A DNA stretch of 10,513 nucleotides. Origin: an uncultured Actinomycetes bacterium (lineage in GTDB: Bacteria > Actinomycetota > Thermoleophilia > UBA2241). The position numbers and the translations under genes are program-made. Location: assembly GCA_963755025.1 (NCBI GenBank), contig CAVWIH010000038.1, positions 1-10,513 of the forward strand. The letters run 5' to 3'. Positions within the stretch are counted from its first letter, which is position 1, and the number at the start of each line of letters is the position of its first letter. Below are positions 41 through 10,513 of the stretch, one piece after another. A model generated the notes under the pieces. The model saw only the letters and a list, made by a program, of their open reading frames with translations. It ran no database searches and was not told the DNA's origin.

Positions 41-117
41 TGGTGCCCCCGGAAGGATTCGAACCTTCGACCTCGCGCTCCGGAGGCGCGCGCTCTAATC
101 CCCTGAGCTACGAGGGC
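41..117 (-). tRNA. tRNA-Arg (anticodon CCG), CCA encoded
   Basis: Reverse complement is GCCCTCGTAGCTCAGGGGATTAGAGCGCGCGCCTCCGGAGCGCGAGGTCGAAGGTTCGAATCCTTCCGGGGGCACCA (77 nt). It has a D-arm TAGCTCAG-GG, anticodon loop CT-CCG-GA, T-loop GTTCGAAT and 3' ACCA. Confidence 0.97.
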
Positions 118-126
118 AACGCGCGC

Positions 127-135
127 AGTCTAGCA
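127..135 (-). promoter_or_regulatory. Putative extended -10 promoter of the tRNA gene
   Basis: Minus strand reads TG-C-TAGACT, ending 9 nt upstream of the mature tRNA 5' end. No clear -35. Confidence 0.5.
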
Positions 136-341: not shown

Positions 342-583
342 GAGCGCACCTCGAAACGAGGCCTCCCGCCCTGCCGCCGCCCGGGAGCGCAGGGCGGGGT
401 GAGTGTCGACGGTCGGTCTGCGAGGTGGTGCGCTCCCAAGGTGAGCTGCTGGACCGGGACCGAGACAGCTCCGACCAGAGACGCTTACCCCGCCCGGAGC
501 GACCCCGGTAGGGTGGGCGCCCTTTTGAGGGCGCCTCACCCGATGCGCCGCGAGTCATTCGAACGCGTTTGAGACCAGACGCG
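342..583. ncRNA. Candidate structured non-coding RNA or cis-element of unknown family
   Basis: 16-bp stem 392-407/480-495 with 2 G-U pairs on + strand. Nested stems 411-415/472-476 and 443-448/466-471. Hairpins 349-361, 365-398, 511-541 and 564-583. 9-bp pseudoknot-type complement 383-391/429-437. No credible ORF covers the region. Confidence 0.35.
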
Positions 584-621: not shown

Positions 622-909
622 TCAGGCCGCGTCGGCCAGGTCGTCGATCCCTGCCGCCAGCTCGATGTCGGCCCGCGTCAACCCCCCGGCGTCGTGTGTG
701 GTCAGTGCGATCGTCACCCGGTTGTAGCGGATGTCGATGTCGGGGTGGTGGTTGACCTCTTCGGCCATCTCAGCCACGGCGTTCACGAAGTCGATCGCGC
801 GCACGAAGTCGCGGAACTTGAAGGTGCGCACGATGGCGTCGCCTTGCGCCTGCCAGTCGCTCAGTCGCGTGAGGGCGTCGTCGCGCTGCGTATCGGTCAG
901 TTTGTCCAT
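622..909 (-). CDS. Pterin-4-alpha-carbinolamine dehydratase (PCD/PhhB family), 95 aa
   Basis: Family motifs RTFKFRDF..AIDFVN.VA..AE..NHHPDI and LTTHDAGGLT..DI.LA. RBS GGAGGAG just before the ATG. Confidence 0.93.
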   Translation of the reverse strand: MDKLTDTQRDDALTRLSDWQAQGDAIVRTFKFRDFVRAIDFVNAVAEMAEEVNHHPDIDIRYNRVTIALTTHDAGGLTRADIELAAGIDDLADAA

Positions 910-996
910 CTCTCCTCCGGCCCGGCTTCAGGTCACTGCGCGGTTGGAGAGATAGCCGCGGGGCGCGGCTTCTAATCCGGTTTGGGTCGGCCGGCC

Positions 997-1470
997 TCAG
1001 CCTTCGTCGCGGTGGCGCAGGGCGCGCTCGACGTCGCGCTGGGCGTCGCGGCTGGCCAGGTCGGCGCGCTTGTCGTACTGCTTCTTGCCGTGCGCCAGGG
1101 CGATCTCGACCTTCACCCGGCTGCCGCGAAAGTACATGCGGGTGGGCACCAGGGTGTAGCCGCGTTCGTTGATCTTCTGCTGCAGGCGGGCGATCTCGTT
1201 CACGTGGAGCAGCAGCTTGCGCGCCCGCAGGGGCTCGTGGTTGGCGAGATTGCCCTGCTCGTAGGGGCTGATGTGGGCGCCGACCAGGTAGACCTCGCCC
1301 TCGCGCACCTCGGCGTAGCTGTCGCGCAGGTTCACCCGGCCCTGGCGCGCCGACTTGACCTCGGTGCCCACCAGCACGATGCCGGCCTCGAGCTTGTCTT
1401 CGACGAAGTAGTCGTGGAAGGCCTTGCGGTTGGCGGCGATCGGCCGCGTGTTGTCGTCGGCTGCTTTCAT
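997..1470 (-). CDS. smpB: SsrA-binding protein SmpB
   Basis: IAANRKAFHDY, EAGIVLVGTEVKS, HISPY, RKLLLH and GKKQYDKR motifs; 157 aa. Confidence 0.98.
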   Translation of the reverse strand: MKAADDNTRPIAANRKAFHDYFVEDKLEAGIVLVGTEVKSARQGRVNLRDSYAEVREGEVYLVGAHISPYEQGNLANHEPLRARKLLLHVNEIARLQQKINERGYTLVPTRMYFRGSRVKVEIALAHGKKQYDKRADLASRDAQRDVERALRHRDEG

Positions 1471-1482
1471 GCTGTGTACAAC

Positions 1483-3367
1483 CTATCGTCCTTTGCGCTT
1501 GCCGGTCGACCGTGGCGGCGCCGGCCGTCGCGGTCCGTGGGCCGAGGTGGCGGCGCCGGTGCGGCGCGGCGCGGGTCGCGTGCGTGGCCGGTCGCTGCGC
1601 CGTTCGTCGTCTAAGTCGGCCCGCGAACCCACCGGCACGAGCTCGACCTTGCCCGCTACGCGGTCGACGCGCACCACGCGCACGCGGATAGGGTCGCCCA
1701 GGCGAAAACGGCGGCCGCTCGCGCCCACGAGCGCCGTGCCGAAGCGGCTCTCGGTGAGGTACTCGTCGCCCAGGTTGCGGATGGGCACGAAGCCCTCGAA
1801 CGAGCCGCCGAAGTGCACGAAGGCGCCGCCGCCGATGAGGCCGATGATCTCGCCGTCGAACTGGCTGTCCCAGCCCTCGTCGTGCAGGCGGCGGTCGAGC
1901 AGAAAGGCGAGGGCGATGTCGTCGGCCTTGAGCTCGAGCTTGGAGATGGTGCGCTCCATGGTCGAGCAGCGCGCGGCCACGTCGGAGAGCTCGCCCGGGC
2001 TGAGCTCGAGGCCGCGGTCGCCGAGGCGGGCCAGCAGGGCGCGGTGCACGACCAGGTCGGCGTAGCGGCGGATGGGCGACGTGAAGTGCAGGTAGCCGGT
2101 GCTCGCCAGGCCGAAGTGGCCCAGGTTCTCGGGGTCGTAGCGCGCCTGTTTGAGGGAGCGCAGCAGCAGCTGCGGAAACGCCAGGCGGCCGCGCTTCTCG
2201 CGGGCGCTCAGCTTGGGCAGCGTCTCGGAGAGCCGGCGCAGCGCGCCGGCGACGTCGGGCGCGGTCGCCGAGTGGCCGCCCGGAAAGCGCGGCGTGGGCA
2301 CGTCGAGCTCGGCCATGGCGTCGAGCAGGCCCTCGGTGGCCGACGGGTCGGGGGGCTCGTGCACGCGGTACACGGCGCGCGCGTGACGGCCGTCGAGGAA
2401 CTGGGCGACGGCCTCGTTGGCGGCCAGCATGAACTCCTCGACCAGGCCGTGCGAGGGGCTCTCGAGGCGCTGCCTCGGCGGCTACCAGCTCGCCGCGCGC
2501 GTCGAAGCGGTACTCGGGCTCGAACGAGCCGATCTGCAGGGCGCCGCGCGCGAAGCGCGCGGCGCGCAGCTTGCCGGCGAGCTCGGCGGCCAGCAGCAGG
2601 TGGCTTACGAGGGCCGGCTCGCACGGCGAGGCCGCGCCGTCGGCGAGCACGCCGTCGACGGCGCCGTAGGTGAGCCGGTTGTCGCTCACGATCGTCGAGC
2701 GGTAGAACGACACCGACGTGCGCCGGCCCTCGGCGTCGAAGGTGAACTCGACCGTGACGGTCTTGCGCGGCTCGCCCTCGACCAGGCTGCACAGGCCCGA
2801 CGAGAGCTCGGCGGGCAGCATCGGCTCGGCCCAGAGCGGCAGGTAGAGGCTGGCGGTGCGGCGGCGCGCCTCGGTGTCGATGGGGCCGTCGGGCGCCACG
2901 AAGAACGACACGTCGGCGATGTGCACCCAGGCGCGGTAACCGGCGCCCTCGGCGCGCACCGAGATGGCGTCGTCGAAGTCGCGCGCGCTGTCGGGGTCGA
3001 TGGTGAAGGTGGGCAGGTCGGCGAGGTCGCGGCGCGGGTCGTCGGCCAGGCGGCGTGCGCCGCGGGCGAGCGCGATGGCCTCGTCGCGCGCCTCGGCGGG
3101 GAACTCGCGGCTCACGCCCTGCGAGACTTCGAGCCCCTTGAGCACGGCCGGCAGGTCGCGCGTGGTGCCCAGCACCTCGACGATCATCATGCGGTTGCGT
3201 TTGGCCGGCACGGCCAGCACGACGTCGTCGACGTGGGGCGCGCGTCCGCCGCGCGCCACCAGAAAGCCGCGCTCGTCGCCGAACAGCGGCTCGAGCGACC
3301 AGAACTTGCCCCAGCGCGCCACGCGGGCGGCGAGCATGGCCGGCGGCAGCACGGGCAGGCGGCTCAT
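1483..3367 (-). CDS. rnr: Ribonuclease R (RNB + S1 domains) with an apparent 1-nt frameshift near 2465-2476
   Basis: The N-terminal frame has the catalytic TIDPDSARDFDDA and VHIADVS motifs. The C-terminal frame has (ESPSHG)LVEEFMLAANEAVA, HFGLA, HFTSPIRRYADLVVHR, an S1 domain and a basic tail. Removing one base joins the two frames into ~627 aa. Directly upstream of smpB, a common arrangement. Confidence 0.9.
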
Positions 3368-6936: not shown

Positions 6937-6987
6937 CGCGACGCTGCGACGCGCGCCGGCGCCGCGGCGTGGCGAGGGCCGCCTGAC
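6915..6987 (+). repeat. 23-nt imperfect direct repeat of the cupin 3' end
   Basis: CGGCATGGCGAAGGCCGCCTGAC (6915-6937) versus CGGCGTGGCGAGGGCCGCCTGAC (6965-6987); 21/23 identical. Confidence 0.75.
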
Positions 6988-7040
6988 CAACGCGAGGAGC
7001 GGCGGCCGCCCTCACGGGCGGCCGCCGCTCCTCGCGTTGG
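6987..7040. terminator. Long perfect hairpin, probable bidirectional terminator between convergent genes
   Basis: 25-bp perfect stem 6987-7011/7016-7040 with loop TCAC, followed on + by CGTTCGTCGTCTTTT. Confidence 0.75.
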
Positions 7041-7097
7041 CGTTCGTCGTCTTTTGGGCCGGGGCGTCGGCCCCGGCACAAGGCCCGGCCACGCGGC

Positions 7098-10365: not shown

Positions 10366-10469
10366 GGGCTCCGGGCGGCGGCTGAAGACGGCGGCCGCCC
10401 GAGCTCCGGGGCGGCGGGCGAAGACGGCGGACCGCCGGGCTCCGGGCGGGGGCTAGGGGGCGGACCGCC
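10366..10469. repeat. Three degenerate tandem copies of a 33-36-nt unit
   Basis: Units 10366-10400, 10401-10436 and 10437-10469; consensus GRGCTCCGGGCGGCGG..GAAGACGGCGG(A)CCGCC. Confidence 0.7.
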
Positions 10470-10497
10470 GGCCGGCGAAAGCCGGCCGGCGGTCCGC
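10460..10497. terminator. Perfect 17-bp hairpin, probable terminator of an upstream minus-strand gene
   Basis: GCGGACCGCCGGCCGGC-GAAA-GCCGGCCGGCGGTCCGC, extendable by 10450-10457/10504-10511. A possible minus-strand TAG lies at 10505-10507. Confidence 0.65.
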
Positions 10498-10513
10498 GAA
10501 GCGCCTAGCCCAG

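Follow-up and report, generated by a model that had tools for sequence, protein, structure and literature searches.

What is the richly folded DNA that separates a tRNA-Arg(CCG) gene from the 3' end of a run of three genes, rnr, smpB and a pterin-4a-carbinolamine dehydratase gene, in an uncultured Actinomycetes bacterium? The window, that is, the whole stretch of 10,513 nucleotides analysed, is contig C38 of a genome of 3.37 Mb with a GC content of 70.7%. An initial annotation, made from the letters alone, singled out positions 342-583 as an apparently non-coding, switch-like element and proposed an unannotated ncRNA, a ribozyme, a conformational switch, or the non-coding RNA of a lost mobile element. 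The surroundings of the element are the following:

41..117, − strand: tRNA-Arg(CCG) gene, flanking the element
127..135, − strand: probable extended -10 box in the promoter of the tRNA gene, kept whether or not the element is there
511..541, strand undefined: separate GC-rich hairpin without a U-tract, kept in two close orthologous spacers
622..909, − strand: pterin-4a-carbinolamine dehydratase gene, its 3' end towards the right arm of the element

The rnr-smpB-dehydratase run lies entirely on the − strand, with the dehydratase gene as its last member. The word at 127..135 is identical in all nine spacers compared, with or without the element; a consensus promoter scan gave no call there. The open reading frames that cross the stretch (156-572, 198-539 and 283-558) have no Pfam match, positions 1-1100 contain no terminator-like site, and the + strand downstream of 342-583 offers no gene start that a switch could govern. 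The RNase R gene (window 770-3367 and 1483-2430, − strand) is seemingly split by a frameshift near 2430; this frameshift, like the one in the dnaE2-like copy of the same genome, is likely an assembly indel. A second small hairpin at about 199-241 begins with the left-arm-like word AGCGAGGG and is kept in three expanded spacers; it is possibly an older, decayed copy of the element. Near the end of the contig, a strong perfect GC hairpin (10457-10501) stands upstream of an ABC substrate-binding gene, with weak Rfam scores.

Every helix named in the initial annotation could be located. The stem P1 (392-407/480-495) has 16 base pairs, two of them G-U; the helices 383-391/429-437 and 365-374/389-398 have 9 and 10 base pairs, 342-353 can pair with 421-435, and the hairpins 511-541 and 564-583 are both present, although the latter is absent from the two orthologues. 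The folding z-score of 342-583 is -4.63 on the + strand, where none of 200 shuffles folded as well, and -2.72 on the − strand. The signal stems from a core of 121 nucleotides (z -4.4, reached by two of 204 random 121-nucleotide intergenic windows of the same genome) and from the flank 505-583 (z -3.4/-3.6), positions 342-383 alone being ordinary (z +0.6). The caution that very GC-rich DNA folds by chance is well placed for the short helices, since a perfect 9-bp helix turns up in 18% of the shuffles of the stretch and a 10-bp helix in 6%, but the core exceeds chance. The helices of the proposed mutually exclusive fold do exist; however, 365-374/389-398 has a probability of 0.0007, against 0.999 for P1, and the alternative helices trace back to two occurrences of the word GAGCGCA, one at 342 and one at 385.

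Rfam has no match at 342-583 up to an E-value of 1, in agreement with the initial annotation, which could not match the element to tmRNA, SRP, RNase P, 6S RNA or common riboswitches, and Rfam covariance models gave nothing relevant at copies of the element in six other loci. Permuted or diverged forms of tmRNA, 6S, SRP and RNase P were ruled out, the genome having its own genes for them on other contigs. A hammerhead-like reading of the CUGCGA/GAGA loop was dropped for want of a third stem.

The search for homologues, by BLAST and covariance models, returned dozens of them, and it moves the boundaries of the object: when 61 genomes were searched at the DNA level, only about 382-506 was found to recur, in genomes of the genus and repeatedly in each. 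What is conserved is therefore 384-504 rather than 342-583. Its parts, together with a neighbouring unit, are:

342..384, + strand: decayed tandem left-arm unit with a period of 43, source of the alternative helices
384..504, + strand: core repeat, an irregular hairpin of about 120 nucleotides that folds better on this strand (BLAST and covariance-model matches; alignments A1, A2 and A5)
387..391, + strand: outermost pairing of 2 bp (387-388/499-500), followed by GCA, the left side of a 3x3 GNA/GNA internal loop
392..407, + strand: 5' strand of the 16-bp stem P1, the G-rich left arm
408..416, + strand: GA internal loop at 408-410, across from 477-479, then the P2 5' strand (411-416)
417..470, + strand: variable interior, specific to subfamily and genome
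471..500, + strand: right arm, with the 3' strand of P2 (471-476), loop 477-479, the 3' strand of P1 (480-495), the GGA loop 496-498 and the outer pair 499-500

The order along the rod is conserved: 2-bp outer pair, 3x3 GNA/GNA loop, 16-bp P1, tandem GA/GA loop, P2, variable interior. In an alignment of 37 diverse copies, which are related, so that counts over copies are not independent, 94.5% of the stem cells are paired and 19 of the 25 pairs show two-sided changes; the 500 shuffles and the slid controls all stayed far below the observed values. P1 has two-sided changes at 12 of its 16 pairs (A5), and P2 is 99% paired in A2. The left GNA is found in 33 of the 37 copies and the right one in 29. 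Among the 31 copies with a 3x3 loop, 28 show the tandem GA/GA, and within the genus subfamily the loop bases are invariant. In some copies the outer loop has been turned into perfect pairs. The stems contain 42 G·T against 4 A·C appositions, about 19 of the G·T lying at one ancestral column, and the modelled strand is the more stable one in 35 of the 37 copies as RNA and in 34 as DNA. The motif GCGNAGC occurs in the interior of 22 of the 37 copies, where about 6% would be expected. As DNA, this motif forms an exceptionally stable mini-hairpin with a sheared G·A pair; its RNA counterparts, exemplified by an 8-mer, are much less stable (PMC13037366).

Around the core, arm units accumulate with a polarity that can be written (L)n-core-(R)m: decaying left-arm units stand upstream and right-arm units downstream. 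Positions 342-384 compared with a left-arm unit of the genus genome G009 reach a score of 33, against a shuffle mean of 10.4 and with none of 2000 shuffles as high; the left-arm arrays of other loci have periods of about 38-52. No similarity to the right-arm unit was detected for the hairpin 511-541 (p 0.51). Several genomes contain back-to-back pairs of elements, 0.3-3.3 kb apart. One such pair (L034:3271-5424, in G004) brackets a HepT/nucleotidyltransferase toxin-antitoxin pair together with a short open reading frame without Pfam match; others flank DUF218 or small genes, as if marking sites of variable cargo. Short perfect hairpins built of the two outer-arm words only, at window 6984-7044, L103:1501-1557, L092:1501-1563 and L186:3223-3276, may be collapsed elements that now serve as terminators.

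The genome that holds the window, G000, has four full copies, on contigs C38, C19, C31 and C20; G007 has 11-13 model matches, and G011, although 100% complete, has no full copy. Covariance model R1 found matches in 11 of 61 genomes; of the 89 genomes of the family, 23 had matches with R2. R3, searched against Actinomycetota genomes only, found them in 11 of 26 genomes of the family, in none of 124 from other families of the class and in one of 150 from the rest of the phylum; all these counts are lower bounds, 24-57 candidates having been scored per genome. Relatives with the element bear the label of uncultured Thermoleophilia or Actinomycetota. At least four related copies with identical loops, a back-to-back pair and right-arm arrays are present in G301, from another family of Actinomycetota, which hints at a wider superfamily. 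In that genome a pair lies between convergent genes (L233:1380-2043, L237, L238), with the GNA/GNA and tandem-GA layout and tandem right-arm arrays. A search of viral contigs with four sequence patterns gave no match, nor did BLAST against phages and plasmids; a pattern search of metagenomes gave one.

At orthologous sites the element is sometimes present and sometimes absent. The dehydratase gene was found in 10 of the 12 genomes of the genus. The spacer between the tRNA gene and the dehydratase gene measures 472-504 nucleotides in G000, G002 and G004, where the element is present, and 38-127 in G001, G006, G009, G010 and G011, where it is absent; in G005 it measures 107 and holds two right-arm units only, and in G008 it holds a copy of a different subfamily. 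The dehydratases closest to that of the window are those of the three other full-copy carriers (95, 91 and 85% identity), and this proximity suggests a single gain in their subclade. Orphan right arms occur in G000 where relatives hold a full copy. Among 35 intergenic copies, counted with crude gene calls and including some that are orthologous, the right side faces a convergent gene end in 24 and a same-sense gene in 11, the left side being mixed; those 24 lie 2-218 nucleotides past the convergent stop codon.

Other copies, in either orientation, lie within reading frames. Each of the 12 genomes of the genus has two DnaE genes, and diverged copies of the element occur within the second. This host gene is likely DnaE2; the G010 product scores 890 against a cut-off of 939 with the error-prone model and 896 against 1002 with the replicative model. 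Of 39 further matches checked, 36 sit in the DnaE2-like gene. They occupy three sites, with 21 copies sense and 15 antisense. The enrichment is overstated, as copies of this sort formed part of the training set of the models and the loci around first matches were rescanned. The PHP loop has 11 sense copies, the HhH loop 2 sense and 6 antisense, and the HhH-OB linker 8 sense and 9 antisense. For cases with anchors, the frame is open in 8 of 10 at the PHP loop and in 7 of 10 at the HhH-OB linker, a count that leaves aside the eight HhH-loop copies. Whichever their orientation, the insertions translate as linkers rich in G, A, P and R, and up to three copies occur in one gene (G064, G081). Outside the genus of the window, 27 of the 31 copies seen are in the DnaE2-like gene. 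The copies so placed include G000:C20:48501-48620 (L102, L226) and its orthologues L097-L099, L146, L151, L168-L170, L173-L176, L178 and L211-L220. Intragenic copies were also found within a FAD-linked oxidase open reading frame in G072 and G095; two genomes have copies in a FAD/Fe-S oxidoreductase frame (L172:3185-3289 and L177:3358-3465) that point in opposite directions, perhaps through inversion in place.

Genes for an enzyme that might move the element were sought as well. A Y1/RAYT protein (PF01797) was found in none of the 12 genomes of the genus and in two of 89 of the family, with no element at those two loci, the MAGs being incomplete; DUF559 was likewise found in none of the 12 and in nine of the 89, never adjoining an element, and GxxExxY in none of the 89. 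Matches to GIY-YIG fall in long open reading frames only, none near an element, and IS110 was not found in G000 or G007. A scan of 36 proteins that neighbour or host copies revealed no transposase or integrase, and no insertion sequence with matching ends was found among them or at four IS110 and two Y1 loci. Across the 37 copies there is no fixed target-site duplication or terminal tag; direct repeats of at least 5 nucleotides flank 14 of them, a figure from GC-rich DNA with varying offsets and no chance control. At the empty sites, divergence is too great for an insertion junction to be read cleanly.

The interiors suggest exchanges between copies. In the genus of the window they are closer between copies of the same genome (mean 0.80) than between copies at the same locus (0.66). 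In a second genus, 4 of 17 same-genome pairs have interiors 0.90-0.98 identical between arms that are 0.71-0.77 identical; the other 13 show no homogenisation.

Putting these observations together, we consider that 384-504 quite probably belongs to a palindromic repeat, dispersed and devoid of genes, of which it is one copy. The repeat likely acts as a hairpin of single-stranded DNA and likely owes its spread to being a non-autonomous selfish element. On unwinding of the DNA, the strand with the G-rich arm would fold into a rod with sheared G·A pairs, which a nuclease or transposase may read. Insertion by an enzyme would fit the scattered sites and the pattern of presence and absence, and copies would persist where they do no damage, downstream of stop codons, upstream of promoters or in flexible linkers of proteins. 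Once inserted, an element likely has its arms copy-corrected against each other, as suggested by copies whose outer loop is now perfectly paired, and this process would itself generate covariation; consequently, covariation is not a proof of RNA function. The interiors are likely homogenised by gene conversion, as suggested by those common to different sites of one genome. Arm units would multiply in tandem by slippage, and copies would decay into lone right arms. At our locus, the element likely rides along passively near the 3' end of the rnr-smpB-dehydratase transcript, and that transcript would read the weaker-folding strand. Several facts pull the other way: the searches for a mobiliser came back empty, a REP family would normally have more copies, vertical inheritance seems to account for many sites, G·U wobbles and G·A pairs in tandem are equally compatible with RNA, the interior of the window copy does not contain GCGNAGC, and the 13 pairs without homogenisation have to be accommodated.

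The RNA readings must be weighed against this one. The copies could be domesticated cis-acting RNA hairpins (3' stabilisers, pause sites or protein-dependent terminators), spread by gene conversion and kept for their effect on neighbouring transcripts. The 24 copies behind convergent stop codons and the lone right arms that outlast the loss of the core would agree with such a role, PMC3733652 argues likewise for REPs from G·T pairing and position, and contigs assembled from RNA libraries span 404-749 (X5) and 388-539 (X16). However, these contigs carry no strand, ends or level, and the parts left uncovered by the contigs of the three RNA runs and one DNA run compared prove nothing; read-through at the locus would come from the − strand, and more generally the transcript of a convergent gene carries the weaker-folding strand; 15 of the 36 copies in the one DnaE2-like gene are antisense and 21 sense; and five relatives do without the element at this locus. 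We hold this explanation to be unlikely, and somewhat more doubtful still is a novel structured ncRNA or ribozyme, present in multiple copies, that is transcribed from the + strand and possibly moves through an RNA intermediate. Strong covariation, a one-strand G·U bias, invariant loop bases in the genus subfamily and the silence of Rfam are what such an RNA would display, but the interior, where a catalytic or ligand-binding core is expected, shows the lowest conservation of all parts and has nothing in common from one subfamily to another, there is no conserved promoter or terminator, reverse transcriptase was found in none of five genomes, and the copy-correction of arms can mimic covariation, some copies having had their outer loop converted to perfect pairs. 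As for the unique ncRNA, ribozyme or switch of the initial annotation, it finds no support in a core that recurs at loci unrelated to one another, in either orientation, and also within coding sequence on either strand. The fold itself is real and biased towards the + strand. Among those first readings, the lost mobile element came closest, through its link to mobile DNA.

A conformational switch or pseudoknot specific to 342-583 is very improbable. The pairing of 383-391 with 429-437 is retained in both orthologues through G·U changes, and matched pairs of 5' flank and interior bind slightly better than permuted ones (p 0.017 over 26 copies, 0.033 over 11 representatives). Yet this signal is not significant once the window copy is removed (p 0.16), and the pairing attains 9-10 bp solely in the three orthologous copies of the smpB locus, with 3-8 bp in the remaining 23 of 26. 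The segment 383-391 is joined directly to P1, and to reach a partner some 25 bp up the rod without any linker seems sterically implausible; the alternative helix makes up less than 0.1% of the ensemble, the second GAGCGCA belongs to a repeat unit, and no gene starts downstream on the + strand. No conserved alternative pairing and no consistent position 5' of related genes were found. Finally, mere chance folding, invited by the GC content of the genome and adequate for the short helices, can hardly account for the element: with a z-score matched by so few background windows and dozens of covarying homologues, it is refuted for the core.

If the selfish palindromic repeat is retained, it likely belongs to an already known kind, as an uncatalogued family resembling REPINs and RPEs. 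Like REPINs and REP dimers, it has two inverted arms around a variable spacer in a long hairpin, in multiple copies, with lone-arm remnants and tandem arrays (PMC3116915, PMC3733652), and REPs too occur inside dnaE2 and other repair genes (PMC3733652). In contrast with the REPIN/RAYT system, there is no linked RAYT and there are only 1-13 copies per genome; in contrast with GTAG/CGTC REPs, there is no fixed tag, a tag word occurring somewhere in the end zones of 13 of the 37 copies. Single arms fold weakly on their own (median about -3.6 kcal/mol), short of a self-folding palindrome of 20-40 bp. The RPEs of Rickettsia, palindromic and about 150 bp long against about 120 here, are likewise found both between genes and in frame within unrelated proteins (PMC10969869), and the present family has in-frame intragenic as well as intergenic copies. 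It differs from RPEs, as they are described in PMC10969869, by its phylum, its GC-richness, its preference for the DnaE2-like gene, its two orientations and its polarised arm arrays. With MITEs such as ERIC and RUP it shares a length under 500 bp, inverted ends, the lack of genes and a long stem-loop (PMC10969869), but it is GC-rich, has no consistent target-site duplication, and no insertion sequence with matching ends was seen at the IS110 and Y1 loci checked. The BoxC/PIT/TMECO elements of E. coli have a consensus tail, that of TMECO, which resembles the G-rich arm, and they are intergenic, without strand bias or linked transposase (PMC4666352), which we count as a likeness. The TMECO triplex hairpin CCCTCNCCC-N3-6-GGGNGAGGG occurs in none of 247 loci, this spacer included, and where TMECO has a third strand, the arm here pairs with a distant complement. 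In the main text of the open-access literature searched, we found no description of the family.

The missing mobiliser leaves room for a bolder conjecture, which we regard as a long shot: the element could be a transposase-free selfish hairpin of single-stranded DNA, copied by the error-prone DnaE2 polymerase machinery of its host through template switching at the fold. If this were true, DnaE2-dependent copying would explain why, in five or more genera, the DnaE2-like gene is occupied at three separate loops, and also the absence of a mobiliser, and the outward growth of the arms as polarised tandem arrays.

Identifying 384-504 as a repeat removes a false candidate for an ncRNA or switch, and it illustrates that a palindromic repeat whose arms copy-correct each other can pass covariation tests. 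Why palindromic repeats cluster in genes for DNA repair and error-prone polymerases is a question left open in PMC3733652. To it the present family adds an actinobacterial case, in which a single gene is occupied at three sites and in either orientation while no transposase is known, and it offers a compact test set for tracing a mobiliser or an effect on the polymerase.
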